64,000 nucleotides of DNA from Squalus acanthias (Eukaryota): assembly GCA_030390025.1 (NCBI GenBank), contig CM059453.1, forward strand, positions 7,254,001-7,318,000. The letters are read 5' to 3'. The notes below the pieces were generated by a model, which saw only the letters and a program-made list of their open reading frames with translations, did no database searches and was not told the origin of the DNA. The number at the start of each line of letters is the position of its first letter. The first letter of the stretch is position 1. Of the stretch, positions 7,629 to 62,161 are shown one piece after another. The translations under genes and the position numbers were made by a program.

Positions 7629-8009
7629 CTAAAACAGAAAGAAATACGTCAGTACACAGAGTGCGACGTCTATTAGTGGACCAGGCCGAAGCGATCTCGA
7701 TGCTGAGTTCGTATGTACCCTCATCACCCTTCCTGATATCCTTTAGCAGGAGGGTACACTGTTTCATTTCAATGTTACACTTGAACTCAGCTCTTCCACC
7801 ATAGTTATAATGCTGCCTGTATGGATCTTTAGAATCATAGATAATGGAGAAACCTTGGTTACCAGGAGCATGTTCCCTCTTTAACCACGTCATATCAGCG
7901 ATTCTCCGATGGACTGGATAATCAAACGTACACCAGATCTCTGCACATGAACCGGCCACCGCCGACACAACTTTTGGCATCAGCACAGAGAATTCAGCAC
8001 TAAAAACAA
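7629..8009 (-). CDS. Siglec-like gene A1, V-set Ig exon
   Basis: 381 nt, phase 1-1, cag acceptor and GTGAGT donor. Siglec-type Cys pattern GSCAEIWCTF...KQCTL. F strand DEGTYELSIEI has no Cys. Confidence 0.9.
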
Positions 8010-8644
8010 CTGCGAAAAATTAATTAGACACCCTTTAATTAGCCATTCAAAATGCATTTCAGCAACTTTATCATCCATTAAAGTATTTGTTAATTGACAA
8101 ATAATCGCCCATCACAATAGCAATTAAAATATCAGTGAAGGCCTTTTCAAAATCAAGAAAAAATTCTAAATAAAATCCAAACACAACAACTATTGAAATG
8201 GTCATAGGCGTACCTATTTGATGGGAGATTTATGAACCGGTAATATACATATTTAATACTCATCTAAAAAACGAATACATATCCACTAACAAGTAAGCGA
8301 ACACCCAATAAAAATTCCCATTAAATATACATTAAAATATTGATCAAAATAAATATTAAACATCTATTGAATCTCCTTTGAATCACTCAATCAATATGAA
8401 GTAAGTTTTATTAAATGTGCTTTACAATAAAATATTCTGAAAATTCCTATATTTAAATATTATTTGAATAGGCTGTATACGCTGTAACACAACAACAACG
8501 CACGCGTTCAGCAATCATGAAATTCCTATTTCACAAGTTCTGAAATCAATAACAAAAAAATCATTCATATTCTTTATTTTGCTCTTCCTTTCCCACAAGA
8601 TATAAATCACTTGCAGAAATTGTAAAAACGCATCAGAAATGTAC

Positions 8645-8687
8645 CTTCTGTCAACATTAAGAGAGGCAGCAGCACGGAACTCATCAT
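8645..8687 (-). CDS. Siglec-like gene A1, signal-peptide exon (MMSSVLLPLLMLTE)
   Basis: ATG at 8687, 43 nt, phase-1 donor AG|GTACAT. Same structure in A2 and A3. Confidence 0.8.
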
Positions 8688-10092
8688 GGCTGTAAAATGC
8701 TGTCGATTTCACTCGCAAAATGAAGAACCCAATTCACAATTTACACCATTCAGATTTCAGCATTCTTCTTTCCAGTCACTTCTTGGATTTCTTTGCTAAT
8801 CAGCATCAGAATATCGGGGAAGTCCGATTCGGTTCCTACCGATCTGTGGAACAGTGCTCACTCAATCAACTCCGTTGGTGAGGTAGGCAGCTAACACATC
8901 TTGTACATGGGCTGCGTGTGACCGACTGTTACAGAATATGATGTTATAGTATGTTTAAACGTTGCAAAAGAATACTTAATACAGAAACAATATCTCTCTC
9001 TCTCGAACAAACACACACAAACACCAAATGTACTGTTATTTATGATATTGATATGTTGGCGTCTGTGTCAGAATGGCACCGCCCACGCTTGCAGACGCCT
9101 CTGACTCACATTTCACACATATTCGCTTTCTGGCAGCTAATACGAGATGAATGTTGAACAGTTGTTGACTACAGTTAGTTAGCATGCTGCAGTCTATGGA
9201 CGTGTGGTTTCGTCACCTTCTTTAAGGAGCGCTCCAACATGTATCTCTGACGTCCTAGATAGGAGCTGTTTGACAGTAGACCGTTTGACGCTGTGGTAAA
9301 CAGCCTTTCTTCGAAATATTTAACTCTTTACATTCACACTCAAGCTCAGTAATTTTGCAGAACTTAAGACAAATGCCAACCTATTTGTTGCAGTGCTTTT
9401 ATTAAGATTTAGTTATGCGCTCTGGGACGTGTGAAATGGACTTAAGGTTCCTGTCGTAAATACAAATATTGCTGTAACAGACACAGATAAAATTGATTGA
9501 AGCAACATTTTCGGTCAAACAGATCAGTGTTGTCAATATCGGGAGACACTGTTTTTCTCATTGGCCACCCGGTGCGGAGGGAATGTCGGAGGACCTCCCA
9601 GTGGGTCTGCTTCTGGGCCTGGAAAAGGTGGCCATTCACAGGTCCAGGCATCACCCGGTCCAGGGGATCATTTGGTCTGACTGCCTGCCTCCCACCACGT
9701 TCGTGTGTCCCTGGAGTGGGAGCATGCGGTGATTGCCTGTATGTTTTAATTCCAGATTTATTTAATTTACTGAATTAAAATACCCCCAGCTGACATGTTC
9801 TAGCGCGATCTTTTTAAAACTACCCCGAGCTCAGGGGAATTGCGCCGAAAAGTACAGCATTCGAACGGATAATCCAGGCTCTTGTATTTACATATTGCCA
9901 TTCACAAACACAGTACATCCAAATACAGTGTTAAACCCAAACTGAGCCCCGATGTTGACCACACATCATTTCAACTTTCGGCCTCAAAGCAAACTGGATC
10001 TTGTGTGGAGCTTCATTGAGCAGGGTGCATTGCACCAACCGCCACTCTGGGATTGACCAGACATTATGGCTTATTTTATTGTTAAAGCAAAG

Positions 10093-10260
10093 TGAGACCT
10101 GGGTCTGAACACACATCCCTGAACTAGTCAGTAAAGCCAAGCTGAGACCTGGGTCTGAACACACATCCCTAAACTAGTCAGTAAAGCCAAGCTGCGACCT
10201 GGGTCTGAACACATATCCCTAAACTAGTCAGTAAAGCCAAGCTGAGACCTGGGTCTGAAA
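10093..10260. repeat. 50-bp tandem repeat (~3.4 units)
   Basis: Unit gagacctgggtctgaacacacatccctaaactagtcagtaaagccaagct. Confidence 0.9.
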
Positions 10261-10764
10261 ACACATCGCAGGGATTTTTTCCCGAAGATAAAAATAGCCA
10301 CATTCTTTCCAGCAGCGCTGAGACTCGAATCTAAAATCTCAAGTTATCACTTCACAGTTCTAGCACTAAATTCAGTAAATTCATAAACCTGTATTTGTAG
10401 CAACTCGGATCTCAATGAGTTAATTTCAGCAGATTTCAGCTCGCTGGACTGTTAATATAACCAGCTGAGGTCACTTATAAAAATGGCAGTTTACGCTCTT
10501 GAAACTGTTTTCTGAGAAACACTTGAACATTTGACATTTCAGATACGTGTTGTGCCCCCGAACAACTGAAGGTGATCAACCCACACGTCTGCAGACAACG
10601 GCTACAGGACAAACCACGGCTTTACACTTCAAACACTCACAGTTCAAGGGCTGATAAATAGCTCAGTGTGTGGGAGTTGAGAGTCGAGGCGTCTAGAGTT
10701 GATGTAGAAGGCTATTTTATATATTGCAATATAAAGTGCCACTGCCTGTCCTATAACTGTGCAG

Positions 10765-13700
10765 ATGATGAGGGGGCTGGTTGTATCGCCGATCAGGTTT
10801 CTTTTGCAGTAGGTGAGCCTCATATATCCTGCAACAGCGGGCCACACACTGATGTAAACTGTTATATTTGAGGAGTCCCAGATTCCCAGCAGTTTAGATC
10901 ACCAACATTTGAGGAGTGGCGAAAGCTGTGTGAGCTACCACGGTTCCCAATGATTGGTGGGTGGCGAACAGCTGACCTCCTAATACTGTGATTCGATTCA
11001 TTACGAACTCCAATATATTACTGTCGAACCGAACACAGAAACTAAATCACTTATATCAGAGATAAAAACAATTTATGCCATTTTGATATCGTCCACCGCC
11101 TCCAGTCATGAAGAGTATTACATTTATTTCCATTCTGCTATTTAGCGCAGGTAAAATATTCATTTTTAATATTGTATGTCAGAAAGAATAACAATGTTTT
11201 AGACATAGCATATAGTTAGTCAATGATTTGTGCATTCACACAGTGGGTATTTAATGTATATTTTATTCGGAACTTTATTATGTATTATATAGGATTGATT
11301 TGATAATTACGCTATGACTTATTGGCTTGCAATTGAATATTTAATAGAATTTAATGAGTTTTAGAGAAAATTGCACGAATTTCATTAGATGTACGAATGA
11401 ATATGTTAGTGGGTGTTTAAATGTTAAATTAATAGTATTTAACTTGACGGTCAGGGTATGTTTATGTTGCTATATTATTGCGGATTTCAATGGGTGTATA
11501 ATTTCTATTTTTTCACCATTTGTCCATAATTCACGATGGTCTGTGAAGGTGCCGTGGAAGGTGTCGGCGGTGAACAGGTCATGTGCAGAGATCCCGTGCA
11601 CATTTGATTATCCCCCCTATGGCCTCAGTCCACTGGGTATGTGGTTAAAGTGGGATCCTGATCCTGTAACCTCAGGGGTCTCGATTATCTATGATTCCCG
11701 GGATTCAGAAAACGTGCCCTTGAAATATAGCGGTCGAGCTGAGTTCACCGGCGAATTTATAAAGAAACAATGTTCCTTACGGTTAAAGGACATCAGCAAG
11801 CTCGATCAAGTTGCCTATTATTTCTTATTGAAGATCATCACCGCCCAGAATAACATAGAAAGATATTCTTCCGGATCTAAGGTCACTCTTTCTATTTTAT
11901 GTAAGTATTTGAATTGTTCCTTTATAGTTTATCTTCCATCTCCTCAGTGTCATTTAATTTGAGCTTAAATATAAAGATTTCTTAATACTCATGGCCCAAG
12001 TTACAGGCTACAGCGGCAGGGCTGGTACACTGCATGATACCCATGATTTTGTTATAGAATAGAATCATAGAATCATAGAATCTTACAGCACAGAAGGAGG
12101 CCATTCGGCCCACCACGCCTGTGCCGGCTCTGTGCAAGAGCTATACAATTTAGTACCACACCCTATGTTTTTCCACAGAAATTGTAGATCAGCCTTGTTT
12201 TAGAACAGCTCTAATTGCTTTAAAAATATTCCCATTGAATCGTATTCCACCAGCCTTTCAGGTGGTGCATTCTAAATCTTAGCAACCCTCTGGGTGAAGA
12301 AATTTCACCCCATTTCCACACAAGTTCTTATGCCAATTGGTTTAAATGTGAGACCTTTGGATACCAACCCAAATGCCAGAGGAAATGTTTTCTCCTTATT
12401 AATTCTATCAAAAACCCTCAATTTTGAATAGCACTGTCAGTTCTCTCGTTATCCTTGTCTGCTATAAGGACAACAAGCACAGCTTCTCCAATCTCTCCAC
12501 GTAACTGCACGTCCTCATCCCTGGTATTATCTTGGCAAACGGCTTCAGTACCTCCTCCAGGGCCTTGACCTCCTTCCTCAAGTGTAATTCCGAGAATTGT
12601 ACCCAAAACTCCAGCTGTGGCAAAACCAGAGATTTGTGAAACTTGAGCATGACTTCCTTGTTATTGTTTTCAATGCCCCTATGTAAAAAGAACCGAAGTG
12701 TCCTATGTGCTTTCTTTTTAAACGCCTGGTAAATTTAACCTGCCATCTTCAAATAAATGTCAATATGTACCCCATGTCCCTCTGTTCTTGCAGCCTCCCT
12801 CAAAATGGGACTATTTAGAGTATGATGCCTCTCCATATATTTCTCCCAAACTGCATTTGTGCTTCACACTTATCCGCAGTAAATTGCATCTGCCATGTGC
12901 CTGCCCATTTTAACAGTCTGTAGATGTACTCCCTAAGTCTGCTACAATCATGCTCACTATTTAATACGTTGCCAAGTTTTGTATCACCCGCAAACTTCGA
13001 AACGTTACTCCCAATACGCAAGTCTAGGTCATTTATATAGAAAAAGAATAGCAATGATCCTAATATCGACCCCCTGGGGGATCCCACATCAGACTTCGCT
13101 CCTGTCAGAAATGCAGCCGTTCACCACGACTCTCTGCCTCCTATCCCTTAGCCACTTTCCTAATCACGTTGCCACCATCCCTTAAATACACTGTTCTTCT
13201 ATATTCCGAATAGTCTGTTATGAGTTACTTCATCCAATGCCTTTTGAACGTCCACATATACAACATCTACTGTACTACCTTCATCAACCCTCTCTATTAC
13301 TTCATCAATAAATCAATCGGGATAGACAGTCACGATTTGCATTTAACAAAGCCCTGCTGGCTTCCCTAATAAACCCATGCGTCTCCAAGTGAGAATTAGT
13401 CTCGTCCTTCACATTGTACTTATTTAGCTTTCCCACCATTGCCGTTTGACTGATTGAGCTGTAGTTCCCAGGATCCTCCGTCTCCACTTTTTTGAACAGC
13501 GGTTTAACAGTTGAAATCCTCTAGACTTCTGGTACCACTCCAATATCCATGGAGGATTGAGAGATTGTGGTCAGAGATTCTTCTATATCCATCCTCGCTT
13601 CTTCAGCAACATCGGATGAATCCCATCTGGACCAGTTGACTTGTTATGTTTTCACCTGAACAGATATTCAGCACTGCCATTCTTACACACTTACATAAAT

Positions 13701-16617
13701 TGGCTGTAATGTTCAGTTAGAAAGAGAAACACTTAAGGTTGTTTTCAGATGTACAGACTGGCGGGTCAAAATTCAATCCTTCGTGGATTCTGGACAAAAA
13801 TTTCAAGGTTTGTACTTCTGAGGGGGAATAAGTGGACAAGACTTAAGGATAGGAGGGATATCTCAACAATGCAATAGTGACCAGATGATCTGTTTTAGGT
13901 GCTGGTTGATGCAAAATATGAACCAGGACACGGGACATTTGAAATAATACATTGGGATATTTTACATCCACCTGTGAGGGAAGACGGGTCATCGGTTTAA
14001 CGTCTCATCCATCAGATGTCATCTCCAGCATTGTAGCATTGCATCAGTACTGCAATGGAATGTCAGGCTACAGCTTGTGATTTAGTCTCTGAATTGGGGC
14101 TTGAAACCCTAACCGGGTCTTGCTTTCTTCTGATATCTTTGCACTTTCCCGCTGTTGTTAATGGGAACAAACGAGGATAGTTAACCTTTTCCTCTCCCTG
14201 AAGACCATCTGCAGCGCTCCTATCACGACGTTAAATGAGGTCAAATTAATTATAAGCAAGAGTTGAATTCACCCCTGTCCCTCAAATGGTAAATTAAGCG
14301 TTTCACGTGACACTGAGCAATTATTCTAAGAGTATCCTAGATTCTATCCCAAATGCAGATATGGAACATAATCTTGGACCCAGTTTTCTATGTTATGTCA
14401 AACCTAATGTTGAGTTGAAGCACTTGTGTTCAATAGAGTGGTGACTGAACTATAAGAAACAGGCCAGCAATGAATAATTCATGTGATACAGTGGATGATA
14501 ATTAGGTTCAGGAACACATACATCAACCGATTGATTCCGTAACCGTTAAGTAATAACTGACAATAGGCTCCTTCCCCTGCACAATAGAGTCATAACGGCA
14601 CAGAAGGAGGTCATTCGGCCCATCGAGTACTTGTCCGTCACCAGAGAACAATGGAAAAAAACAATCATTTTTATTCAAGATATTATCTGATACGTTGGGC
14701 TGAATCGCCTTGACTTTCACTCCATAATTTTATTATTTTGAAAGCCACTGTAACGTGAATTTCTTTCTCTCCTTACAGATAAGTCCTGGATATTAGTCTC
14801 TGGGGAACTGATTGCTGGACAACCAGCACATTTGACCTGCTCATTCACCACCAGTTGCCCGTCCGCCAAACCTGAACTGATGTGGATTCAGGACGAGAAT
14901 AAACGTCCTTCACTGCAAGAGAGTAAAACTTCAAGACACAGTGGAAAACTTTCGATGGTTCCTGGATGGTTTCATCAAGTTTCACCTTCACCCTATCAAT
15001 GGACCACAAAGGGAAAAGGATGGGATATAAGCTTGCGGTTGATGTAATCGTGGGTGCCGTTCAAGAAACACTTAGACTGGACTTTAAGTAACTACTGTAC
15101 GCTTCATTCTACCATCCTGTTTGTAAATATGATCCAAACTTATCTTTATTCTCAGTGGAGTGATAGCTGGCCTGGAAAATTGAAAATTTCAAAACTGCGA
15201 TGGATAGATTTTTTTTTAGTTAAGGGTATTAAGGGTTACAATAAAGCAAAGGCGGTTAGACGGAGTTAAGATATGGATTAACCATGATCAAATTGATCAG
15301 TGGAACAGACTCGAAGTGCTGAATGGCCTATGATTCTATAATCAATGAACCAAATTGACAATCTGAGATTTATTGTAATTTATATTTTTTAACATTGATA
15401 CAGACCCGTGGAGTAATATTGGTCGCTCCGTGGTTGTCATTTACGTCAAATATTATTCCAAAGGCTCCTAATTCCTGATATAGTTCCAGACAGAGAGTAC
15501 CTGAAACAGAAGGGTCTGTGTCGAGTTGGCGGGGGCGCTGGTCGGGTTACTAAAATTGGCCGCAACAGCTCTGTTTAAGGGATGGGAAAGCCCACTGTTC
15601 TTGCTCTCGGAGGAATGGCCGCTTGATTGACTTATCGGTGGAGCAGAACCACGTCCAGGCAGTCATTACAACTCTTTGAAGAGAAGAGGAGGAAAGGTTA
15701 AGATAAAGCATGGATCTAAATAAGATTGTCGGTGGAACATCAACAATCTCAAGCTGGCTTTTCAATTTACAGTTGACAATATAACCACCATATCTGCTTT
15801 AATATTCTTCGTTGGTTGTCAACCGGATTGTTATTTAAACCTCTGCTCCGTCATTTTCCTATAACACCAATGATCTTGCGTGTTTCAGATGCACTGTGGA
15901 AACCCAGCCTCAATTCCTCTATAGTAAAAGTGGAAGGAAGTTCATTATTATTATACTGAACGGCCCTGGGGAACCCAACGGTCAGTTTAACATTGCTCCG
16001 AGAAGGGACACAGATCAGCAGTTGAACTAAAGCAGAAATTTCACAGCATTAGTTCTGATGATGAGGGGGAGTACTGTTGCGTGGCTGAAAATACCCTGGG
16101 CACCGCAAACAGCTCCAATCAGATTTCTGTACAATGTAAGTGTTATGTGAACTTATTTAATTTATAAAGGGACATTAATGGTCGGTCTCAAATGTTGTTT
16201 GGTACCGCTCCTCTGAACGTTCGCGGCGCTATCTAAATCGGTCGGCTAAGTGATGAGGAGGGGCCAATACTCTTGGCGCGCCGGTACTGGGGCCAGCGGA
16301 ACCCCAAGATTTCCTTTTCGAGTAGAAGGAGCTGAATAGGACAATTAGAATGGTGGCAGTGATGAAATAAAGCGGGTTATTCTGGAATATTAAGCGCAGT
16401 CTCACCCGGTTCAGTAGCTCCACATCTAACGCACTACTTTCTGTTACAGAGACAAGACAAATATAGAAACAGTGATGTGAGTGGGGCTCCATCAAACCAG
16501 TCAGCTCAAAGTGAAGAGGTCCTGTATGCAGCTGTCAGTGTTTGAAACGTTCGAAAGCAGGAGCGATATCTCCAGCAAGAGGATTCCAGTGAATAAGCCG
16601 CAATTAAAAGCAAATGA
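10765..16617 (+). pseudogene. Siglec-like pseudogene B1 (inhibitory type)
   Basis: Putative leader 10765-10812 ends in TAG. V exon ~11517-11900 has its acceptor reading AC. C2 exon 14779-~15089 is frameshifted with Cys>Tyr. Ig3 exon 15889-16135 has TGA at the Cys codon (15957) plus a frameshift. ITIM exon 16450-16617 has two stops. Ig4, TM and tail-1 exons are absent. AATAAA at 16890. Confidence 0.85.
12060..13640 (-). mobile_element. 5'-truncated CR1 LINE fragment
   Basis: RT-like ORF pieces (GSPRGSILGSLLF..FAGDTKLG) and a (atagaatc)n tail at 12053-12082. Paralog at 58810-60048. Confidence 0.85.
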
Positions 16618-16939
16618 AAATCAGCGGCATTCACACTATTCTGACAGATGGAACTGGTCAATATCTTCACACAATTGTTTTTTATGATATCGAACAGAAA
16701 CTCGCACTCCGGGAAGTGCTGTGATAATGGAGATCACTCAGAGAGTAATAGCTAATATTTTAACATCTCTTTGTGAGACGATTTGATTTACAATCCGAAA
16801 GATTGTCCACTCCAAACATACTTCCGAAACGTTGCAGGAAGGGGGCGTGAATGTTCAATGTAATTTTAAACTTTTTTATCTGCTTTAATAATAAAATAAC
16901 TATTTCCCAGTTCGAACTTTTATTTCATTTCGGAACAAA

Positions 16940-20100: not shown

Positions 20101-20559
20101 TTATCTTGGCTGAGGGAATCCAAATGGACTCAGAGCCCTGGGTTAGAGAGGGGTATTTCTTCCATAGTATTTATCGCTCTTCAGTGAACCCTGCTGCAAG
20201 TAGCCTTTTCGATATCCAGTGAGGACAGTAGCAGACTCCGACGTATTGGGCAGGAGGAGAAACATCATGGTGAAGCAATGCATCTGCAAAAAAGCAGCTT
20301 AAGCGAGAGATTGGAGAAATCGAACTCCAGCAAGCATTCAAGTTGGAAGTGGAGAATATGGGGGAAAATACTGCAAGCAAGAACAACGAGCGTTTCCAAT
20401 GTCTTGATTATAAAAACTTGTCGTATCTCTTCGTTGTAATAATTTGTTCGTTTAGACAAATAAACTGAAATTTTGACATTCAGAGAAACGTCCTCTCTAA
20501 GTTCTGGTCCTTTTCATGTAAATTTAATAGCTGCATATTCGCAAGTCATTTTGCAACAG

Positions 20560-34300: not shown

Positions 34301-34539
34301 NNNNNNNNNNNNNNNNNNNNNNNNNNNNNNNNNNNNNNNNNNNNNNNNNNNNNNNNNNNNNNNNNNNNNNNNNNNNNNNNNNNNNNNNNNNNNNNNNNNN
34401 NNNNNNNNNNNNNNNNNNNNNNNNNNNNNNNNNNNNNNNNNNNNNNNNNNNNNNNNNNNNNNNNNNNNNNNNNNNNNNNNNNNNNNNNNNNNNNNNNNNN
34501 NNNNNNNNNNNNNNNNNNNNNNNNNNNNNNNNNNNNNNN
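34301..34539. other. Assembly gap (239 N)
   Basis: Run of N. Confidence 1.
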
Positions 34540-38280: not shown

Positions 38281-38448
38281 TCAGTTCTGTTTAATTGCTG
38301 CATATTCGCAGGTCTCCTCATTTTGAATATATTGATCATGTTTGCGGAAGTTGGAGAAATTGAAGGTCGCGTACACAATCTCGTCATTCTGAGCTGGTTT
38401 AGTCGATTTTGCGGTGCCACGACCAGCCGCTGTAAACTGATGGTCCCT
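38281..38448 (-). CDS. Siglec-like gene A2, terminal cytoplasmic exon (…EIVYATFNF…TCEYAAIKQN*)
   Basis: ttccgttacag acceptor, 168 nt open to TGA. ITIM-like plus ITSM-like Tyr motifs as in Siglec tails. Same length as, and homologous to, B1 exon 16450-16617. Confidence 0.8.
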   Translation of the reverse strand, partial: RDHQFTAAGRGTAKSTKPAQNDEIVYATFNFSNFRKHDQYIQNEETCEYAAIKQN

Positions 38449-40192: not shown

Positions 40193-40274
40193 CTTTTCTG
40201 CATACTGCACCCGACTGTAAATCACCAAATCATCGTGTGCTTCGGAGACACGTGCAGCTTCTCCGTGTTTCTTC
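40193..40274 (-). CDS. Siglec-like gene A2, cytoplasmic exon 1 with ITIM (RKKHGEAARVSEAHDDLVIYSRVQYAEK)
   Basis: Acceptor ctaattattcag|G matches the phase-2 TM donor. VIYSRV at 40225-40208. Donor uncertain (AAG|GCTGAC); read-through would stop at 40165-40163. Confidence 0.7.
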
Positions 40275-43668: not shown

Positions 43669-43762
43669 CTTTTTATCTTCAGCGTGAGAACGACTGCAAT
43701 TAGAATAACAAGCCCAATGGTTACTCCTCCTCTTATGAGGACGATTGTCCTGGAGAATATTC
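43669..43762 (-). CDS. Siglec-like gene A2, transmembrane exon (GIFSRTIVLIRGGVTIGLVILIAVVLTLKIK)
   Basis: 94 nt, ends in phase 2. Arg codon AGA at 43733-43731 lies within the hydrophobic segment. Confidence 0.85.
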
Positions 43763-44571: not shown

Positions 44572-44859
44572 CCTTATAGTGGAGCTGGTATTTACTGACA
44601 GAATCACCATGCTCGTTTGCTGCAACACATGAGATCAGGTTTCCGGTTCCGGGTGGGTGAGTCAGTCTCAGGGAGCTCTCCATGAGGTGACTGTTCCCCG
44701 CCCAGTAGATGATTTCCACATCTGACCTGTTCCCAGTGAGGATTCTCCCATTGAGTCCCCACGTGATGTTTCCCGGGGGATTTGCTCTGATCCGGCAGCT
44801 ACAGTTCGTCCAATTCTCAGAGCTGGTGCATGTCGGGCCTGATAAAATTGTGGGTTTAT
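44572..44859 (-). CDS. Siglec-like gene A2, Ig exon 4
   Basis: 288 nt, phase 1-1, open. Paralog of 3078-3365. Confidence 0.88.
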
Positions 44860-45786
44860 CTAAAAAAAATGGAAACTTCAATAGGAAATGATCATGTAAA
44901 CAGTTGTAGTGTCGAAGTACAATTAAGTAATGACTTAAACTAACCATAATACTTCTGGTTGTTATATTTCAAGATGAAGCAGCCTACGTTACACCAGTTC
45001 ATGGCTTATTATTGTTTGACTTATAATAGGTGAACTCGTTAGGAACAATTTCACGTTAAATTCAATGATTATTCAGTACATCAATACCTCTCCTGACAGA
45101 TGTTATGAGGGACCCTCAGACGGAGCTAGCTCAGAGTTTTGATTATGTATAATATACCCACAAACATGTCTCACCCGTCACTGTTTAAAAAGATCAATTT
45201 ATTTCAATGTCTTCACTTTGTTTACTATTTTAAACATCTTCATTTTTGGTGTACTGACGTGATTCTTCAATACACGCCCCGCAAACAAGGCGACATTTAA
45301 AATAACCAAATCTCGAGAATATTACACTGTTCACTCAACATTAATACAAGTAACAGGAGTTGCCTTAACACCATTTCATCACACTTTTTTGGAAAGAATT
45401 TGTACTCATTAAATTGCTGCAAGTCAGTTCTAAGGATTGGAAAATTGTTTATTTCAGATGATGAGTATAATTTATGAACAATTAGTTTTGGACTAAATGT
45501 CCCAGTAAATGTGCTTGTGTCGCAACCTCATAAATGTAAGGCCTGCTGCATTTATGAGACATTGTGCCATATTCCACTCCTGTCATACTGAGCGAGATGC
45601 CAGGTTAGTTTCCATTATTGGAGCCATCCAGGTAGTTTGCGGCTATTTCCGCGGGAAGGGGTGAAACTATCACAAACTCATGCACATGGGCGCCTTCCAG
45701 CAAGCAGGCAAGAAAACATTGGAATTTAATCCAGAGTTCGTGTAGTGAAAGGCTGCTGTCTAATTGATAAATTAATACTTACTTAC

Positions 45787-46044
45787 ATTGTACTGAAATC
45801 TGTGTGGAGCGGTTTGTGGTGCCCAGGGCATTTTCAGCTATGCACCAATATTCACCGTCATCCTCAGAACTAATGTTGTGGAATATCTGCTTTAGTTCAC
45901 CAGTGGAAGATATGCTGATCTCTTCACCATTTTTCACCCATCTTAAACTGACCAGGGGCTTCCCGCAGGCCGTGCAGTATAATTGTAATGAACTTCCTTC
46001 AACAGCTACTATAGAGGAGTTGACGGTTGGGATTTCCAGTCCAT
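45787..46044 (-). CDS. Siglec-like gene A2, Ig exon 3
   Basis: 258 nt, phase 1-1, open. Paralog of 4290-4547. Confidence 0.9.
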
Positions 46045-46631
46045 CTGAAACAGGCGTTAATGCAAAACGTGATTGTCGAATAAGCATAATTGAGTTCCTA
46101 ATTAATTCATTATATTGGGTATGGGGATTGGGCGGGAAATTGGAGTTCAGATCGATGATCAGCCATGTTTGCCGGAGTGGCGGGGCAGGCTCCAATGGGC
46201 CGTATGGCCTACTCCTGTTCCTAATTTTTAATTTATTTTTAAGCCCAACCAGAGCTGAGATCTGGTGTTCGAGCTTCAGATCTTAACTCGGCATGGCCTT
46301 TGTTGCTTCCATTTATGACTGACTTAACTCAGAACCTGACTGGAAGTTCATAGAATAACGATTAACAATCACGTTAAAATATCTGTTGGAGGCACCATCA
46401 TTGATTCATGGATATGAATGTTTCTAATGTAATCTGACTGCTGAGAATTAGATGAGAGTCATTCCGAACCTTTGATTATCGAAGTGAGCTCTCCTGGTAC
46501 AGAGGCTGAGCTTTTCATGATTCATCCTTTGATGCAGTTCTAATCCCAAATAAATTACTTCTGGTAAAAGTGCAAATTTGGAGCCGGTTGGCCGACAGGA
46601 TAAATCTGTTTACTTTAGACTGGACACTTAC

Positions 46632-46943
46632 CTTCAATCTCCAAGGTAAGATTTTGTGCTGAAGGAGTTGGGATACCATCAATTAGAATTGTGCATCCCA
46701 GAATTTTCCCGTCATGAGCAGATGATGGTGTGAAGATGATGACGGATGAAACTGTCCAAGAACCTGAAATTTCATTGTTAATTTCTGCTCCATCTTGAGT
46801 ATCCATTGGGGAAGGAAGGCACACATTGTAATTAATCCACTTCAGTTTCAGGTTGCCATCCGGGCAGTTGTGGGTGACGGAACAGGTCAATCCTGCAGTT
46901 TGTCCAGCGATCAATTCCCCATAACCTGAAATATCTGGCTTTT
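46632..46943 (-). CDS. Siglec-like gene A2, C2-set Ig exon 2
   Basis: 312 nt, phase 1-1, open. Paralog of 5134-5445. Confidence 0.9.
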
Positions 46944-49131: not shown

Positions 49132-49512
49132 CTAAAACAGAAAGAAATACGTCAGTACGCAGAGTCCGACGTATATTAGTAGACCCGGCCGAAGCGATAT
49201 CGATGCTGAATTCGTATGTACCCTCATCACTCTTCCTGATATTCATTAGCAGGAGGGAACATTGTTTCTTTGCAATGTTGCCCGTGAACTCAGCTCTTCC
49301 ACCATAGTCATAATGCTGCACGTATGGATATTTAGAATCATATATAATGGAGAAGCTGGGGTTACCAGAACCAGGTCCCCTCTTTAACCACGTCACACCT
49401 GCGATTCCCCGATAGTCTGGACAATCAAACGTACACCGGATCTCTGCACATGAACCGGCCACCGCCGACACAACATTTGGCATCAGCAGAGCGAATTTAG
49501 CACTAAAAACAA
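49132..49512 (-). CDS. Siglec-like gene A2, V-set Ig exon
   Basis: 381 nt, phase 1-1, open. GSCAEIRCTF...KQCSL...DEGTYEFSIDI. Confidence 0.9.
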
Positions 49513-50150: not shown

Positions 50151-50193
50151 CTTCTGTCAACATTATGAGAGGCAGCAGCACGGAACTCCTCAT
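50151..50193 (-). CDS. Siglec-like gene A2, signal-peptide exon (MRSSVLLPLIMLTE)
   Basis: ATG at 50193, 43 nt, phase-1 donor. Confidence 0.8.
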
Positions 50194-51065: not shown

Positions 51066-51330
51066 CTTATTGGCCACCCGTTGCAGACGGGATGTCGGAG
51101 GACCTCCTCGTGGGTCTGCTCCTGGGCCTGGCCAAGGTGGCCATTCACAGGTCCAGGCAGCACCTGGTCCAGGGGACCATTTGGTCCGACTGCCTGCCTC
51201 CCATCCGCGGCTATATCCACATTCGGGTGTCAATGAAGTTGGAGCATGCTTTGAATGCCGGTATGCTTGAGGCCTTCCGCGAACGGTGGACACCGAGGTG
51301 ACGAGAGTGCATTGTCGACACGGCCAACAA
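51066..51330 (+). mobile_element. Tx1/L1-like LINE ORF2 3' fragment (shorter paralog at 9551-9735)
   Basis: EDLLVGLLLGLAKVAIHRSRQ..LEAFRERW resembles the C-terminus of Tx1-type ORF2. Confidence 0.6.
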
Positions 51331-51994
51331 TTGTTTAATTTCACAAAGTTACTCCTTATATTTAATGACAACTTGGACCTTTTTGAGTGGGCGTAAAAAT
51401 GGGGCAAATGCGTTAATTTTTATTAAATTAGTGTCACGTCATCCTCACTGGCCAATCAGAGAAGAGTAACAAAGGCTCATTTCACAAGAGTACCACCCCG
51501 CTTTCTGATGCTGCAGAAATTCCCCCTGTTCCAGTCAGGCATCGATTCTGCTCAAATTACGATGATTCATTGGAGAGTTTACATTGGGGGATTATGCTAA
51601 TGAGTGTGAGTGGAAACTTGAACGTAACTTCATTTTGTCAAAAGTGACACAATTTCCAGCGTATTCTAGGTGCAGTTTGCAAATAAGCCACCAGCGGAAA
51701 ATCCCTGCCACCTTTACTAAACTAGGTAGAACTAGGCACCAAGAGAATGGGAGAGGAAGAGAGCGAGAGGGAGACAGTAAAGATATGTGAACAGGAAGGG
51801 ATAAGATAAACATTGAGAAAGTAACGCTAATAAGAAATTAACTTTTGAAGAACAAGCATGTCCTTAATGGCCTTGAAGCAGTGAAGAAGGGAAATGTAAG
51901 AATAAATGAGAGAACTCATGCAGTTTGATTGGGACAAAATATGGCTTTAAATATCTGCAGAGTGCAAGAGGAAGGATAGATGGGAGAGGAAGTA

Positions 51995-52415
51995 GAGTGG
52001 ATTGGGCCTATACTCACTGGAGTTTAGAAGAATGAGAGGTGATCTCATTGAAACATATAAGATTCTGAAGGGGATTGAAAGGGTAGATGCTGAGTGGTTG
52101 TTTAACCGGGGTGCAGAGTTTAGAACTAGGGGGCATAGTCTCAGGATATTTATGGCTGAGAAGACGAGGACTTTCTTAACTCAGAGGGTTATGAATCTTT
52201 GGAATTCTCTATCCCAAAGCGCCGTCGATACTGAATTGTTGCGTATATTCAAGGCTGAGATAGATTTTTGGCTATCAAGGGACTCAACGTGTATAGAGAT
52301 TGGGAGTGAAAGTGAAGTTGAGGTCGAAGATCAGCCACGATCTTATTCAATGGTGGAACTGGCTCGAGGGCGTTTATGACCCACTCCTGCTCCTAGTACC
52401 TATGACCTTATGAAC
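51995..52415 (+). mobile_element. CR1 3' fragment
   Basis: GLYSLEFRRMRGDLIETYKIL..WNSL followed by the 3' stem and tail. Confidence 0.85.
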
Positions 52416-54989
52416 TTGTTACTATGAGCATTTAGCTCAACCTGCTGACCAAGCTAAACAAAAACACATTTTACAGCTATTTCAGATTGCCCCTGGGACG
52501 GTTGTCAAGGAGATATTCTGAGAAGATAACACGAAGAAATCCTGAAAATTGAGCCAGAATACTTGGGGTAATTGAAAGAGCAGATTCTAGACTGAATTGA
52601 AATATCAGACAAAAGCGAACAGATCCGAGTGTGAAGTGTATGCTCTCGGAGTTATACCTGTAAACATATATCAAGTCAGGCAATTAATCGCCTGCTTTCA
52701 ACATGGATTTTTCCCTGGTAATTTAAACACTCCAGCATAGGAAGAGGAGCCGCTAGTTGTTTCGCAAAAAAACTCAGTTGCATTAAATGATTCAACATGT
52801 GCTACCGGTGCTGAGCTCTGTACAGTGGATTGTATAATTACATTTCCTTATTTTGGTTTCTGATGAACTTAACATATAGGAAAGCAATCTTAATACCGTT
52901 ATTTCCAATTTACACAGGGGACAAAACCATGGCTGAAATTCAGTGTCAGTTTGCAGAGTCTTCGTGTCCTCCTAACAGCTTTCTGTCCCACCTAGCTTTG
53001 CAACGTCAGCAAACTTGGCATACATTTCCTTTCATATTAGGCACGGGATTTCTGCGTTCGTGTTGGTGTTGCTGCAGTAGGGAGATTCCCTCTAGCATCT
53101 CTGTGTGTTGGTGACGTTTTACAGTTACAAAGAATTACATAGAATGGGCAGCACAGAAGCAGGCCATTGGGGCCAGTTGTCTATGTCGGTGTTTATGCAC
53201 CATAAGCAACATCTCCCTCCCCAATTCATCTAATTCATTCAGCATAACTATCTATTCCTGTCTCCCTCATATGTTGTTCCATCTTCTCCTTGAATGCAAC
53301 TATGCTATTCGCCTCGTTTACTCCTAGCAGTAGCGAGTTCCACATTCTGCCGTAAAGCTTTTTAAACAAAATTTTCCTTAAAATATTCCTGGATATTTTT
53401 AAGAGTATTAAATTGTTAAAGTTTGATTAATACAGCTGAAAATGTGATTATCACAAGAAAGAACAATTTTGAATCACGGTGTCAATCCACCAACTATGAG
53501 TAACCCGATTATAATTGGCTGAAAATTACTTAAAAAAATATAGTTAAAACTATGTTCTAGTTAGATTAGGATACAGTAGTCAATTCCTTAGGATTATTTA
53601 TTTTCAGTCAATACCTTTCAAAATGTACGTATTAGTGCTTAAGAAAATCCAGCTTAATTTTGGGCCTGCAAACGAGCACAATTAGAGGAAACTATCAAAG
53701 GAGATTAACTCATCCTGGGGGCGTGGCCACTAGTTTGGATGGGCCTGCTTCTTTATGTTTAATTTATTTACTCGTTCCTGGGATGAGGGGGTCGCTGCCA
53801 AGGCCGGATGTATTGCCCAACCCGAATTGCCCTTGAGAAGGTCGTGGTGACCCACCTTCTTGAACTGCTGCAGCCCGTGTGGTGAAGGTACTCCCAGAGT
53901 GCTGACTTTTTCGCAGTGGTTTGGTACAACTGAGTGGCTTGCTAGGCCTTTTCAGAGGCCAGGAAAGAGTCAACCACATTGCTGTCGGTCTGGAGTCACA
54001 TAGAGGCCAGACCAGGTGAGGACGGCAGATTTCCTTCCCGAAAGGACATCAGTGAACCAGATGGGATTTTACAACAATCTGGTAGTGGCATGTTCACCAT
54101 TACTGATACTAGCTTTTTAATTCCAGATGTATTTAATGCACTGAATATAAATTCCCCAGCTGCCCAGTTCTAGCGCAATGCTTTTAAAACTACGCCGATA
54201 TCAGGGGAATTGCATCGAAAAGTACCGCATTCGAGCGGATACTCCAGGCCCTTGTATTTACATATCGTCATTCACAAACACAGTACATCCAAATGCGCTT
54301 TACAACTAATTAAGTACTTTTGAAGTATTGTAACGTTGTAATCGCAGCGGCCATTTTAGCGTACAACACGTTCCCCCTAAATCATCAATGTGATATCGAC
54401 CAGATAATCTGTTTTGGTGCGGCCCAGGACACCGGGGAGAGCGACACTCCCAGTATCCGAAACAGTGGCAAGGGATCTTTTCAGGCACCAAAGAAGCATC
54501 AGTTTATCGTCTCATTTGCAAGATAGCTTCTGCGCAAGTGCAACACTACCTCAGTTGTGCACTGGGAATGTCAATCTGGATTTTGCGCTCAAGGCTCTGG
54601 AGTGGGTCTTGTAACCCATGACATCTTGATTCAGATGCAATATATTGTGAAGATGGATGCTCTGAGATCTCAATTCGAATTACAGTTTAAACGTGGAGCT
54701 GAAAACACAACAGGTCCTTCAAAGATTCAGCTTACACTATAAGCGGATGTTGCCTGACCGCAAATACATTTATTCTGGTCCAATTGTCCAGAATGGTTCA
54801 AACCGAAGAACGTCATAGATGGCAGTGGGCTGTGTTCTGCAGTAACCACAACTACAGAGGCGCTGAATAGAACCGAGCACTTCACACCTCCCCTCTTTTG
54901 CTATACTGGCACACGGTGTAAACAAACCCACCTCGGTGCAGCCGCAACGAGTGAAAAACTGTGCATGCTCCATATGAACAGTCAGCGTT

Positions 54990-57548
54990 AAACCCAAATT
55001 GAGCACCGAATTTCACCACACATCATTTCAAACTTCGGCTTCAAAGCAAATTGGTCTTGTGTGGAGCTTCATTGAGCAGGGGGCATTGCACCAACCGCCA
55101 CTCTGTGATTGACCAGACATTATGGCTTATTTTATTGTTATTGCAAACTGAGACCTGGGTCTGAACACACATCCCTAAAGAAGTCAGTAAAACCAGGCTG
55201 TGACTGGGTCTGAACACACATCCCTAAACTAGTCAGTAAAACCAGGCTGAGACCTGGGTCTGAACACACATCCCTAAACTAGTCAGTGAAGCCAAGCTGA
55301 GACCTGGGTCTGAACACACATCCCTAAACTAGTCAGTAAAACCCAACTGCGACCTTGGTCTGAATAGAAGAACCAAACAAACTCGGCCCTGGATTTGAAC
55401 CCCCTTCACACCGCCAAAAAAATGGTTGTCCCAATGGATGATTTTAATCTCTTAGTTGTTTAATAAAAATAAACTGGGCACTGGAACCGCACTCACATCC
55501 CTGAAGTGCTCTGTAAAATCAGACTGGACCCTGGATCTTACCGCAAATTCCATCTCCCTTTCTCAGACTTTCTCTGTCAGAATGTCTCTCACACATTTTG
55601 ACTTCTCTCTCTCTCTTTTTTCGCTAGAAAACGAGAAGGCTGAGCTGTGGCCTAATAGAGGACTTGAAAATCACGATAGGGTTTTTGAGGGTAGATGTAG
55701 AGAAGGTATCCCTATTTGTGGGGAGTCCAAAACTCGGGGTCATATATCTATGATTATCACCAATAAATCCAGTCGAGATTCAGTAGAAGCTTCACTACCC
55801 AGCGTGGTGAAAATGTGAAACTTGCTACCGCAGTGAGTGGTTGAGGCGAATAACATAGATACATTTAAGGGGAAGCTAGACAGGTACATGTGGGAGAAAT
55901 ATAGAGAAGGATATGCTGATAGGGTTAGAAGAGGTAAGGTGGAATAAGGCTCATTAGGAGCATAAACATACTGGCCTTTGTTTATATGTAATTATGTAAA
56001 TGTTATTCACTCTCTGGCTCTCTCTCTCTCTCTCTCTCTCTCTTCCTCCCTCATTATCTGTCAATTAAGGGTATTAAAAGAGAATAAAAAAGGTGAGCAA
56101 CTGCGATTTCAAACGGGTATAAAAAGGGGGTTTAAAAGTGATCTAATAGAGGTTTAAAACGGAGATCTAAGGCGGATCATGAAGGGGGTGAACAGGGGCT
56201 GTAGCACTGAGGTTAAGTACTGGTTTTATTAAGGGGTTGACAGTAGTATTTAAAAGGGGGGTTTAAAGAAGTGTAATTACAAAGAGGGAAGGCGGGAGGA
56301 TTCTGTGGTCTCACCGGAAGTGACATCAATCGCAGACATGACAGACAACAGCGAATGGGCTCTCATTGGATCTGTCATCATTTCATCAGTGAATATGAAA
56401 TCCTACACTAGTGATTAGTAAGAAGATGAATATATTAAAAGAGGAATGGCCATTGGTCCAAAGGACGCTGCATCTTGACCGTGTGAAATTCACCCTCATT
56501 GATTCTCATTCACTTATTTTTATGCTTGAGGGAGTGGAATAATCACGGGGCACTCACGAGAAGGCAACGTCCCCTTTCCCAAATTTCGAAACCAAGAGAT
56601 ATTTCAGGTAAACTGTTATCGCACTGGACTGAATGTTCAATTTAGTTCGTATGCATAATATAAGGCTTAAATGGTCACACTCAGAGCTCCACACGCAGTT
56701 TCCCTCTCGGACAATTATCATCCTCTGCACCATTTATACATTCCTCAGTTCTTATATTGTATTTCCATTCACTGCCTGATGTTAGTTTATATGTTCTACT
56801 GGCCTTGTACTAACAGGTTTGTAAGCGAGTGATACCCATCCTGTAATATCGGCCTCTGTTGTCTCGTCAGGACTTCTTCTTTCTCGCCTTACTAAACAAT
56901 TTGATTATCTTCCGTTTTCAATTCTGATTAATTACATACCGAAAATGTCCACTGACATCTTCACCCCACAGACAGCGACTGACCTGTTATGCCTTGTCAA
57001 CAGTTCCTGGTGTTCTTCAATGGATGTGTGCCCGGGACGTTCAAGAGTCCTGAGTAATGAGGCTGCTGTGACACTCTCCTTGTGTGCTTCAGAAAATAAT
57101 GGAGAATTAAATATCTTTGCTGTGTTGAGAAGTCCAATTAGTATGAATAGAATGTGCAAAATATTGTAATGGGTGAGCGCAAGAAAAATAAACAATTTGC
57201 TCTGGAAAGTGTAACGGATTTCAGATTAGAATTGTGAAAATGGGAAAGAGTGAGTTGTGCAAACTGCACGAGGCTCATCCGAGGTGCTTTACTGACATCT
57301 ATAAGGTAAGGTAGCGATTGATTACTAACCTCTGCATGGTAGCAGTGATACGGTCCTCTTATCTTCCAAAGAATCTGAACTAATTCTGCTTCATAATCTG
57401 ATTCCAAATGCGCCCAGCTTGAAGCTGGACTGTGTGCGAATGTGGTTCCCGATTGTATCCAGGATTTGATCCCACTGATCAAGTTGCAGGGATTTGTTCC
57501 CGTAGATAAAAATATCCACGTTGTTTCCAGCAGCATTGACACTCCAAT
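54990..57548 (-). pseudogene. Candidate multi-exon relic with SMAD MH2-like similarity
   Basis: Phase-1 exons 57548-57330 (one TGA), 57119-56940 (open, 180 nt) and a terminal exon from 55102 (frameshifted; intact paralog at 10046-9931). The family call is by eye only. Confidence 0.35.
55149..55365. repeat. 50-bp tandem repeat (~4.4 units)
   Basis: Paralog of 10093-10260. Confidence 0.9.
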
Positions 57549-57979
57549 CTGAAAGCTCACGTCACATTTCACAGTTCTAGCATTAAAGTCAGAATCTTCA
57601 TAAACCCGTCATTGTAGCAACTCGGATCTCAATGAGTTAATTTCAGCAGATTTCACCTCGCTGGACTGTTAATATAAACAGCTGAAGTCACTTCTAAAAA
57701 TGGCAGTTTACGCTCTTGAAACTTTTTTCAGAGAAACATTAAACATTTGACATTTCAGATACGTGTTGTGCCCCCGAACTACTGAAGGTGATCAACCCAC
57801 ACGTCTGCAGACAACGGCTACAGGACTAACCACAGCTTCACACTTCAAACACTCGCAGTTCAAGGGCTGATAAATAGCTCAGTGTGTGGGAGTTGAGAGT
57901 CGAGGCGTCTAAAGTTGATGCAGAGGCTATTTTAGATATTGCAATCTAAAGTGCCACTGCCTGTCCTGTAACTGTGCAG

Positions 57980-58646
57980 ATGATGAGGGGGCTGGGTGCA
58001 TCTCTGCTCAGGGTTATTTTGCAGTGGGTGAGCCTCATATATCTTGCAACAGCGGGCCACACACTGATGTAAACTGTTATATTTGAAGAGTCCCAGATTT
58101 CCAACAGTTTAGATCACCAACATTTCAGGAGTGCCGAAAGCTGTGTGAGCTACCACGGTTCCCAATGATTGTTGGGTGGCGAACAGCTGACCTCCTAATA
58201 CTCTGATTCGATTCATTCCGAACTCCAATATATTAGCGGCGAACCGAAAACAGAAACTACATCACTTATATCTGAGATAAAAACTATTTATGTCATTTTG
58301 ACATCGTCAACCGCCTCCAGTCATGAAGAATATTAAATGTATTTCCAATCCGATATTTAGCGAAGGTAAAAAATATTCATAGGATATGTGGTTAAAGGGA
58401 GTCCTAATCCTGGAACCTCACGGGTCTCGATTATCTATGATTCCAGGGATTCAGACAACGTACCCTTAAATTATAGCGGGCGAGCTGAGTTCACCGGCGA
58501 ATTTATAAAGAAACAATGTTCCTTACGGTTAAAGGACAACGGCAAGCGCGATCAAGGTGATTATTATTTCATATTGAAGATCATCACTGCCTTGAATACT
58601 ACAGAAGGATATTCTTCCGGATCTAAAGTCACACTTTTTATTTTAT
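57980..58646 (+). pseudogene. Siglec-like pseudogene fragment B2
   Basis: Leader-like exon 57980-58027 and the 3' part of the V exon (58385-58646). A ~475-bp deletion relative to B1 removes the acceptor and V N-terminus. Downstream exons are replaced by the A3 inversion. Confidence 0.8.
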
Positions 58647-58809
58647 GTAAGTTTTTTGAATTGTTCAATTTTAGTTTATCTTCCATCTCCTCAGTGCCAT
58701 TTAACTTGAGCTTAAAGTGTAAAGATATCTTGTTACTCTTAGCCCAAGTCACAGGCTACAGCGGCAGGGCTGGTACACTGCATAATACCCATGAGTGTGT
58801 TGTAGAATA

Positions 58810-60048: not shown

Positions 60049-60049
60049 G

Positions 60050-60415
60050 TCAGAGAGTCATAGACTTATACAGCACATAAAGATGCCCTTCGGCCCATCG
60101 TGTCCGCGGGGGCCATCAAGCCCTGTCTATTCTAATCCAATTTCCGAGCACTTGGTTCGTAGCCTTGTATGCTATGGCGTATCAAGTGCTCATCTAAATG
60201 CTTCTTGAATATTGTGAGGATTCCTGACTCTACCACTCCTGCAGGCAGTGAGTTCCAGATTCCAACCACCCTCTGGGTGAAAAAGTTTTTCCTTAAATCC
60301 CCTCTAAAACTCCTGCCCCTTACCTTGAAACTATGCCCCCTGGTTATTGACCACTTGACTAAGGGGAAAAGTTCCTTTCTATCTATGCCCCTCATACTTT
60401 TGTACACCTCAATAA
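60050..60415 (-). mobile_element. CR1 3'-end fragment at the inversion junction
   Basis: ORF MRGIDRKELFP..TRGHSFKV..FFTQRVVGIWNSLP. Confidence 0.85.
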
Positions 60416-61093
60416 ATCTTCAAAATTTCTGAACTTGAGTGTGAATGTAAAGAGTTAAATATTTAGAAGAAAGGCTGTTTACCACTGCGTCAAACGGTTT
60501 ACTGTCAAACAGCTCCTATCTGAAACGTCACAGATGCATATTGGAGCGCTCCTTGAAGAAGGTGACGAAACCACACGTCTACAGACTGCAGCAAGCTAAC
60601 TAACTGTAGTGACCCCTCTACAACATTCAGCTCGTATTAGCTGCCAGAAAGCTGAAGATGTGTGAAATGTGAGGCAGAGGCGTCTGCAAGCGTGGGCGTT
60701 GCCATTCTGACACAGACGCCAATATATCAATATCATAAATAACAGTACATTTGGTGTTTGTGTGAGTTTGTACGAGAGAGGGAGATATGTTGTTTCTGTA
60801 TTAAGTATTCTTTTGCAACGGTTCAATATACCATAACATCATATTCTGTATCAGGCGGTCACACGGAGCCCATGTACAAGATGTGCTAGCTGCCGACCTC
60901 ACCAACGGAGCTGATTGAGTGAGCACTGTTCCAACACATCGGTAGCAACCGAATCGGACTTCCCCGACAGTCTGATGCTGATTAGCAAAGAAATCCAAGA
61001 TGTGACTGGAAAGAAGAATGCTGAAATTTGAATGGTGTTAATTGTGAATTGATTTCTTCATTTTGCGAGTGAAATCGACAGCATTTTCCAGCC

Positions 61094-61136
61094 ATGAGCA
61101 GTTGCGTGCTGCTGCCTCTCATAATGTTGACAGAAG
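61094..61136 (+). CDS. Siglec-like gene A3, signal-peptide exon (MSSCVLLPLIMLTE)
   Basis: ATG at 61094, donor AG|GTATAT. Confidence 0.8.
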
Positions 61137-61774
61137 GTATATTTCTGATGTTTTTTTTTTACAATTTCTGCAAGTGATTTATATCTTGTGGGAAAGGAAC
61201 AGCAAAATAACGAATATGAATGATTTTTTTGTTATTGATTTCAGAACTTGTGAAATAGGTATTCCATGATTGTTTAACGCGTGTGTTGTTGTTGTTTGAT
61301 AGCGTATACAGCCTATTGAAATAATATTTAAATACAGGGATTTTCAAATTATTTTTATTGTAAAGCACATTTAATAAAATTTACTTCATATTGATTGAGT
61401 GATTCAAAGGAGATTCAAGAGATGTTTAATATTTATTTTGATCATTATTTTAATGTATATTTAATGAGCATTTTAATGGGCGTTCTCTTACATGTTAGTG
61501 GATATGTATTCGGTTTTTAGATGAGTATTAAATATGTATATTTCCGGTTCATAAATCTCCTATCAAATAGGTATTCCTATGACCATTTCAATAGGTGTTG
61601 TGATTGGATGTTATTTAGTATTTTTTCTTGATTTTGAAAAGACCTTCACTGATATTATAATTGCTATTGTGAATGGCGATTGTTTGTCAATTATCAAACA
61701 CTTCAATGAATGATAAAGATGGTGAAATGAATTTTGAATATCTAATTAAAGGGTGTCTAACTTATTTTTCTCAG

Positions 61775-62161
61775 TTGTTTTTAGTGCTGCATCCTCTGTG
61801 AAGATACCAAAAGTTGTGTCGGCGGTGGCCGGTTCATGTGCAGAGATCCGGTGTACGTTTGATTTTGATTATCCAGACTATCGGGGAATCGTTGATATGA
61901 CGTGGTTAAAGAGGGAACCTGGTCTTGGTAAGACTGGCTTCTCCATTATCTATGATCCTAAAGATCCACACAGGCAGCATAATAACTACCGTGGAAGAGC
62001 TGAGTTCAAGTGTAACATTGAAAAGAAACAATGTTCCCTCCTGCTAACGGCTATCAGGAGGAGTGATCAGGGTAAATACCAACTCAGAATCGAGATCGCT
62101 TCGGCCATATATATTAATAGACCTCGGCCTCTGCATGCTGAGGTATTTCTTTCTGTTTTAG
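61775..62161 (+). CDS. Siglec-like gene A3, V-set Ig exon retaining the essential Arg
   Basis: 387 nt, phase 1-1, with a 2-aa insertion. DQGKYQLRIEI. Confidence 0.9.

Follow-up and report, generated by a model that had tools for sequence, protein, structure and literature searches.

Probable ancient loss of the essential sialic-acid-binding arginine in a shark and ray clade of Siglec-fold receptors, with likely regain in one of three Squalus acanthias copies

In sialoadhesin (Siglec-1), Trp2, Arg97 and Trp106 are described as critical residues (PMC13086771), and loss of the essential arginine from open reading frames is reported for human Siglec-XII and for ape Siglec-5 and -14 (PMC7379906, PMC6288428). 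Such a loss is usually viewed as a recent, terminal step toward pseudogenization. The window analysed here is a 64,000-nucleotide stretch of Squalus acanthias DNA (assembly GCA_030390025.1, contig CM059453.1, positions 7,254,001 to 7,318,000, forward strand) that carries three genes with open Siglec-like V exons, A1, A2 and A3, and two B-type genes, B1 and B2; the labels are those of an earlier, sequence-only reading of the stretch, and the strand names used below follow general usage. Our results suggest that the arginine is missing from most members of the clade of shark and ray receptors to which A1–A3 belong, and that its presence in A3 is the derived state.

The locus shares features with several described systems. 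Sialoadhesin has the closest V domain both by sequence (28–32% identity) and by Foldseek; unlike sialoadhesin, however, A1–A3 have an incomplete triad, a short ectodomain and, in A2, tail exons with tyrosine motifs. MAG (Siglec-4) is the best family profile match (E 6.6e-60) and shares the cysteine pattern of the V domain and domain 2; of the three C2 domains of the A genes, the second and third resemble MAG Ig4 (residues 312–391) and, weakly, Ig5 (398–478). MAG orthologs would be expected to have five Ig domains, a conserved single copy and the Arg, whereas the A genes have four Ig exons, exist as three fast-evolving paralogs and show ∼22% V identity to MAG, which carries a Tyr on the G strand as well as the Arg. 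The locus also resembles the Arg-mutated CD33-related Siglecs of primates (human Siglec-XII; ape Siglec-5 and -14): both show tandem clustering, pseudogenes, rapid V-domain evolution and open frames lacking the essential Arg, and A2 encodes proximal and distal tail tyrosine motifs like theirs, though joined in frame only via a GC donor. This is a likeness of features, the V-domain tree described below having no mammalian CD33-related row. The primate Arg losses are recent, single-gene and partly polymorphic, whereas the loss here extends over 11 or more species of sharks and rays and is accompanied by loss of the G-strand aromatic. The elasmobranch RefSeq models called ‘sialic acid-binding Ig-like lectin 8/12/13/14’ and ‘MAG-like’ belong to the same clade (V identity 38–52%), but these names are automatic, and A1–A3 form a lineage-specific expansion.

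The V exons and the codons that carry the argument are as follows.

7629..8009, minus strand: A1 V-set exon
7702..7704, minus strand: A1 Arg-site codon AGC (Ser102)
7663..7665, minus strand: A1 Arg115 on the G strand, Trp106-equivalent (Arg in A2 and A3 too), register taken from the domain end
49132..49512, minus strand: A2 V-set exon
49205..49207, minus strand: A2 Arg-site codon AGC (Ser)
61775..62161, plus strand: A3 V-set exon with a 2-codon insertion
62086..62088, plus strand: A3 Arg-site codon AGA (Arg), likely regained from AGC

Alignment of the A3 V domain with DSGTYNFRFEIS of PDB 1url/1od7 (mouse sialoadhesin) is gap-free across the F strand and places the AGA codon at 62086–62088 (plus strand), as read from the assembly, in the Arg97 column. 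The AGC codons of A1 (7704–7702, minus strand) and A2 (49207–49205, minus strand) occupy the same column, as do Leu in B1 and Ile in B2. Thus the essential F-strand Arg, a mark of Siglec membership, is present in A3 and absent from A1 and A2, and the three genes differ here by a single base, AGC to AGA being one base change. Re-reading of the sequence therefore confirms the codons reported earlier, as well as the Ser of A3 at the A-strand position (Trp2-equivalent) where A1 and A2 carry an aromatic residue, Phe. The earlier count of one Arg in five V domains holds insofar as only A3 has the residue, but is overstated: B1 and B2 are broken genes, and the fair count is one in the three open V exons.

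Homologs were gathered by word-index searches and one full HMMER search, with elasmobranch relatives named by look-up; from ∼180 proteins, 39 homolog V domains were chosen by similarity to A1–A3 and B1, the divergent P0139 and P0159 being then dropped. In the maximum-likelihood tree of 40 V domains, built with the Arg column excluded, A1–A3 are monophyletic (100/96) and nested in a 20-row ‘A’ clade (98/94) in which only two rows have Arg. Apart from A1–A3, the clade has 17 members, drawn from 11 species of sharks and rays (among the latter Narcine and Hypanus), and 16 of them have another residue (Ile in 11, Ser in two, Thr in two and Leu in one). The rows outnumber the independent lineages, since the Hypanus pair, the Cetorhinus pair, P0057 and P0063 include near-duplicate or partial models. 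Arg is found in six of nine homologs of the sister B-type group and in nine of ten outgroup rows. It is very likely, then, that loss of the Arg in the A clade was ancient and clade-wide; the shark–ray split dates to roughly 270 million years ago. At the clade frequency of one Arg in 17 homologs, three copies would include one or more Arg with p ∼0.17, so that the one-in-three pattern is unremarkable within the clade.

This sampling of the Arg site across elasmobranch homologs, along the lines that the sequence-only reading had itself proposed, changes the history drawn there. The earlier reading held that A1 and A2 had probably left sialic-acid recognition while A3 keeps the Arg, with human Siglec-12 as the parallel. 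Absence of the canonical Arg from A1 and A2 stands, as does the expectation that they are unlikely to bind sialic acid canonically, but not the idea that these two genes left recognition themselves, since the clade norm is non-Arg (16 of 17). Nor is retention in A3 borne out, as A3 is an outlier in a largely non-Arg clade, and the Siglec-12 analogy, a recent loss in a single lineage, fits poorly because lack of Arg is the norm across the whole shark and ray clade.

The order of events was examined by parsimony over 997 usable bootstrap trees, again with the Arg column left out of tree building. A non-Arg ancestor of A1–A3 is cheaper in 997 of 997 trees at equal costs, in 985 when a gain costs 2 and in 919 when it costs 3 (66 ties, 12 favouring retention); with amino-acid states, regain is cheaper in 927 of 997, with 70 ties and none for retention. 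In addition, reads from four of 12 runs were aligned to the A1 V exon, giving 183 differences and 176 pieces, of which 40 and 32, respectively, were considered. Runs X1 and X5 contain an extra paralog class with an intact Ser codon and 13 listed differences, none of them in the codon, the class being defined by pairing these 13 listed differences with records that have 13 differences. Conversion of A3 from a B-type gene as the source of its Arg was rejected, the flanking residues being A-type. We consider it likely that A3 regained its Arg by one base change, and, as far as sequence can tell, the polarity is probably the reverse of that first proposed: an ancient loss followed by regain in A3.

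Several observations weigh against this order of events. In approximately unbiased (AU) tests, neither a tree in which the other A-clade rows form one clade (p=0.41, 0.51) nor one in which A1 and A2 are sisters (p=0.11, 0.33) is rejected. Polarised sites conflict (three unite A1+A3, four A1+A2 and one A2+A3), intron differences among the copies are near star-like, and the homolog set consists of hand-picked cluster representatives and automatic gene models, with weaker multi-domain matches left outside. Moreover, the sole Arg exception among the 17 homologs, the V-only Heptranchias model P0017 (144 residues), is basal. Some of these points would suit the history first proposed, in which the A1–A3 lineage kept the Arg, A3 still retains it, and A1 and A2 lost it recently through a ligand switch or escape from sialic-acid mimicry. 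Such a history requires both that A1–A3 branched before the 16 non-Arg homologs and that A3 is sister to A1+A2, and neither constraint is rejected singly; the four sites uniting A1 and A2 lie in the F–G region, the basal clade member has Arg, and recent Arg losses are documented for primate Siglec-5, -12, -14 and -17 (PMC7379906, PMC6288428). However, of 1000 bootstrap trees only 12 place A1–A3 as the sister of all 16 others and 52 make A3 the first branch among the three copies; the fourth paralog class likewise has Ser, and A3 shares the remodelled G strand of the clade and has neither aromatic. We therefore regard recent loss as rather improbable.

The sequence-only reading had called the V domains Siglec-like and suggested comparing AlphaFold models with Siglec-1; both the assignment and the comparison are in agreement with our results. 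The best PDB sequence matches of the A-type V domain are sialoadhesin and MAG, and sialoadhesin is the top Foldseek match of the AlphaFold2 (AF2) models of A1 and A3 (mean predicted local distance difference test scores 86.7 and 85.5). VIA-align superposes A1 residues 5–126 on sialoadhesin 1–117 with a Z-score of 16.6 and a root-mean-square deviation of 1.8 over 111 aligned residues, but CRIg/VSIG4 ties with it (Z 16.8), and the family was therefore assigned by sequence and not by fold alone. At the sequence level, the B- and E-strand cysteines C26 and C84 are invariant in 31 rows, with no F-strand cysteine, C21 in the V domain and the extra Cys of the first C2 exon would make up the V-to-C2 interdomain disulfide pair, and a D-strand Arg is invariant across the family alignment. 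The gene layout, a sialoadhesin-type N-terminal V-set domain followed by C2 domains and a transmembrane segment, is also that of the family (A3 is visible to its first C2 exon). On these grounds A1–A3 are Siglec family members by descent; they are not filed as sialic-acid-binding Siglecs because A1 and A2 lack the Arg and A3 lacks both aromatics.

None of A1–A3 has the full Trp2/Arg97/Trp106 triad, A1 and A2 retaining the Phe only and A3 the Arg only. The Trp106-equivalent column, located in the sequences by counting from the domain end, holds Arg in all three. An aromatic residue (Trp, Tyr or Phe) is found there in none of the 20 A-clade rows, compared with Trp or Tyr in all ten outgroup Siglec rows, and an aromatic at the Trp2 position in six of 17 A-clade rows. 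Canonical sialoside binding would consequently be absent in A1 and A2 and weak or absent in A3, which, as both aromatic pocket residues are gone, is not a clean sialic-acid-binding control. The earlier statement that loss of the Arg abolishes binding is not a universal rule: Arg-independent sialoside binding is reported for Siglec-6 R122A (PMC10122656).

The residue that replaced the G-strand aromatic deserves separate consideration. Arg or Lys stands at the Trp106 position in ten of 20 A-clade rows, from sharks and rays and including A1–A3, but in none of the 20 B-type and outgroup rows, and eight of the nine rows with Glu or Asp two residues past the old Arg site have the G-strand Arg. In the AF2 model of A1, the adjacent F (E97–107) and G (E114–125) strands bear both residues, which by β-hairpin register would be cross-strand neighbours; a structural salt bridge is therefore the simpler interpretation, and a relocated anchor for anions the more daring. 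In the latter, this Arg, held by the acidic residue, would bind anions, and A1 and A2 would still recognise glycans bearing sialic acid or sulfate, in a shifted pose. The fourth paralog class retains the Arg, and Arg-independent Siglec-6 binding is reported to need an Arg of a D-strand motif (PMC10122656), to which the invariant D-strand Arg of the A-type family may be equivalent (Siglec-6 Arg92). On the other hand, the salt bridge accounts for the co-occurrence with no ligand, ten of the 20 rows have no basic residue and the rows are non-independent, and a fast-changing F–G region is poorly suited to a fixed sugar pocket. A relocated anchor is thus unlikely, if the least so of the alternatives.

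Rates of change in the V exon are high. Between paralogs (65–74% V identity), ω is 1.39 for A1/A2 (p=0.70), 2.07 for A1/A3 (p=0.13) and 2.94 for A2/A3 (p=0.016). The A3 branch carries 25 nonsynonymous changes and one synonymous change, its rate of 0.086 exceeding the 0.041 of flanking noncoding DNA (Fisher p=0.004), and the A2 branch 21 and three (p=0.1). For A1/A2, pN/pS is 1.35 in the V exon and 0.47 in the C2 exons, and 12 residues are changed by the 13 base differences between A1 and the X1/X5 class. These figures fit a ligand-binding V face under diversifying selection on a conserved stalk. The case is weakened by the uneven significance of ω, the lack of excess on the A1 branch (10 nonsynonymous, four synonymous), the pooled value of p=0.052 and the unrooted assignment of changes to branches.

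The same data bear on whether A3 regained its Arg under selection together with sialic-acid binding, the F–G changes rebuilding the pocket. The A3 branch shows 24 amino-acid changes, S-to-R among them, and 12 of the 24 fall within residues 90–120; the A3 V domain is the most basic (net +7, compared with +1 and +3), and experimental restoration of the Arg is reported to revive binding by human Siglec-XII (PMC7379906, PMC6288428). However, A3 has Ser at Trp2 and Arg at Trp106, all three positions being described as critical (PMC13086771), some of the ‘A3 changes’ are ancestral states, and the remainder of A3 lies beyond the window, so that A3 may be an incomplete gene. We find such a functional resurrection very doubtful. 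A combined history, in which the anion-binding Arg of the clade shifted from the F to the G strand before sharks and rays diverged and so created a new pocket for glycans, with the canonical Arg arising again in A3 afterwards, appears quite improbable.

Ancient loss with regain in A3, together with non-sialic ligands, remains the reading that we consider reasonably likely as a whole. A1–A3 would be tandem copies within a shark-and-ray group of MAG-like membrane receptors with the Siglec fold, and the sialic-acid pocket of this group would already have been dismantled in the ancestor that sharks and rays share; A1 and A2 would have inherited the absence of the Arg, and A3 would have recovered it through its single base change, most likely as one of many recent surface changes and not as a retained sialic-acid anchor. 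The Arg at the Trp106 position may mainly pair with the acidic residue two past the old Arg site. The diversifying V face is a candidate for binding non-sialic, probably protein, ligands of host or microbial origin, and a protein ligand at a Siglec V domain has a described precedent in the streptococcal β protein and Siglec-5 (PMC3190825). Signalling may be inhibitory, through tail tyrosine motifs resembling immunoreceptor tyrosine-based inhibitory motifs (ITIMs).

The exons outside the V domains are the following.

8645..8687, minus strand: A1 leader exon
5134..5445, minus strand: A1 first C2 exon, Siglec domain-2 type with extra Cys
4290..4547, minus strand: A1 second C2/I exon, MAG Ig4-like
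3078..3365, minus strand: A1 third C2 exon, weak MAG Ig5 similarity
2161..2254, minus strand: A1 transmembrane exon; the tail exons would lie beyond the left window edge
50151..50193, minus strand: A2 leader exon
44572..46943, minus strand: A2 three C2 exons (46943–46632, 46044–45787 and 44859–44572)
43669..43762, minus strand: A2 transmembrane exon
40193..40274, minus strand: A2 first tail exon; joins the last exon in frame only via a GC donor
38281..38448, minus strand: A2 last exon, encoding the ITIM-like motif IVYATF and, distally, TCEYAAI
61094..61136, plus strand: A3 leader exon
63858..64000, plus strand: A3 first C2 exon, ends at the window edge

A1 and A2 are minus-strand duplicates, 89% identical over 9.7 kb, with the architecture leader-V-C2-C2-C2-transmembrane; each splices through GT-AG sites into a 458-codon stop-free frame from leader to transmembrane exon, which bears out the open frames noted earlier. 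Of A3, a plus-strand copy, the window shows the leader, the V exon and the beginning of the first C2 exon. The A2 tail exons at 40274 and 38448 match homolog tails, and the proximal ITIM and distal ITIM-like motif occur in A2 as well as in the homologs. In A2, however, the in-frame junction needs a GC donor (40193); splicing from the GT donor (40183) leads to out-of-frame tails, read-through soon stops, and the inhibitory tail may be lost or down-tuned. This lack of an in-frame GT donor for the ITIM-like exon, together with the position of the A1 and A3 tails beyond the window, counts against inhibitory signalling at this locus. An ORF-like conserved stretch 700 bases past the transmembrane exon was rejected as the tail in favour of the homolog-matching exons.

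Near the transmembrane start, A2 (43669–43762, minus strand) has Arg where A1 (2161–2254, minus strand) has Ile, and several homologs have a basic residue. The Arg was rejected as proof of an activating receptor, since several homologs with tyrosine-motif tails are basic there. Extra, unpaired-looking cysteines occur in the V exons of A1 (77 and 118), A2 (30) and A3 (79), many clade homologs having Cys at the Trp2 position; these are possible new disulfides or covalent dimers. In A1, the 3′ end of the last C2 exon is repeated as a short duplicate just within the following intron (3007–2960, minus strand).

Arg loss is well known in primate Siglecs, and what seems new here is its extent across sharks and rays. 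The literature searched, subscription papers being outside its scope, yielded no study of a clade-wide Arg loss or of the Arg site in sharks or rays. The Siglec-evolution surveys of Bornhofft 2018, Cao 2009 and Angata 2004/2006 may cover part of this topic. A whole receptor clade seems to persist and expand without the Arg across sharks and rays, and therefore Siglec-fold receptors can apparently function lastingly without canonical sialic-acid binding; database labels like ‘sialic acid-binding Ig-like lectin 8/13’ would then mislead for most of the models. A1, A2 and A3 form a natural series for asking if an Arg once lost can return and if it is sufficient on its own. The tyrosine motifs of the tail bear on the claim, made in a teleost study, that fish are without inhibitory CD33-related-type Siglecs; that study has no mention of ‘shark’ or ‘cartilaginous’ (PMC7226832).

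The B-type genes are represented by four features.

11108..11150, plus strand: B1 leader exon (pseudogene)
11520..11900, plus strand: B1 V exon with a mutated acceptor (CAT) and Leu at the Arg site (pseudogene)
14779..16620, plus strand: B1 C2 exons and tail exon, broken by frameshifts and stops
58323..58646, plus strand: B2 remnant (pseudogene), leader adjoining a frameshifted V exon of which the last two thirds remain, with Ile at the Arg site

B1 and B2 are pseudogenes. Besides its mutated V acceptor, B1 has a frameshift in the first C2 exon, a stop and a frameshift in the next and two stops in the tail exon, and no transmembrane exon was found; in B2, intron 1 is missing together with the first third of the V exon, and there is a 1-base frameshift. 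Their Leu and Ile were therefore rejected as functional Arg losses, and intact B-type homologs have Arg in six of nine cases.

The A and B genes stand head-to-head in both duplicated units (A1/B1, 9700–10300; A2/B2, 51200–57500), and A- and B-type models lie on common contigs in Mustelus and Heterodontus, so the A/B pair may be an old unit. An isolated TCEYAAIKF fragment at 20520–20546 (minus strand), adjoining a tandem repeat, resembles the end of an A-type tail exon and is possibly a remnant of another copy. An assembly gap of 239 N (34301–34539) separates B1 from A2. Two degraded long interspersed nuclear element (LINE) copies with endonuclease and reverse-transcriptase frames, presumably CR1-like, lie at 22150–24960 and 28460–32410 (plus strand), the second nearly full length, and smaller LINE fragments flank A1, A2 and A3.

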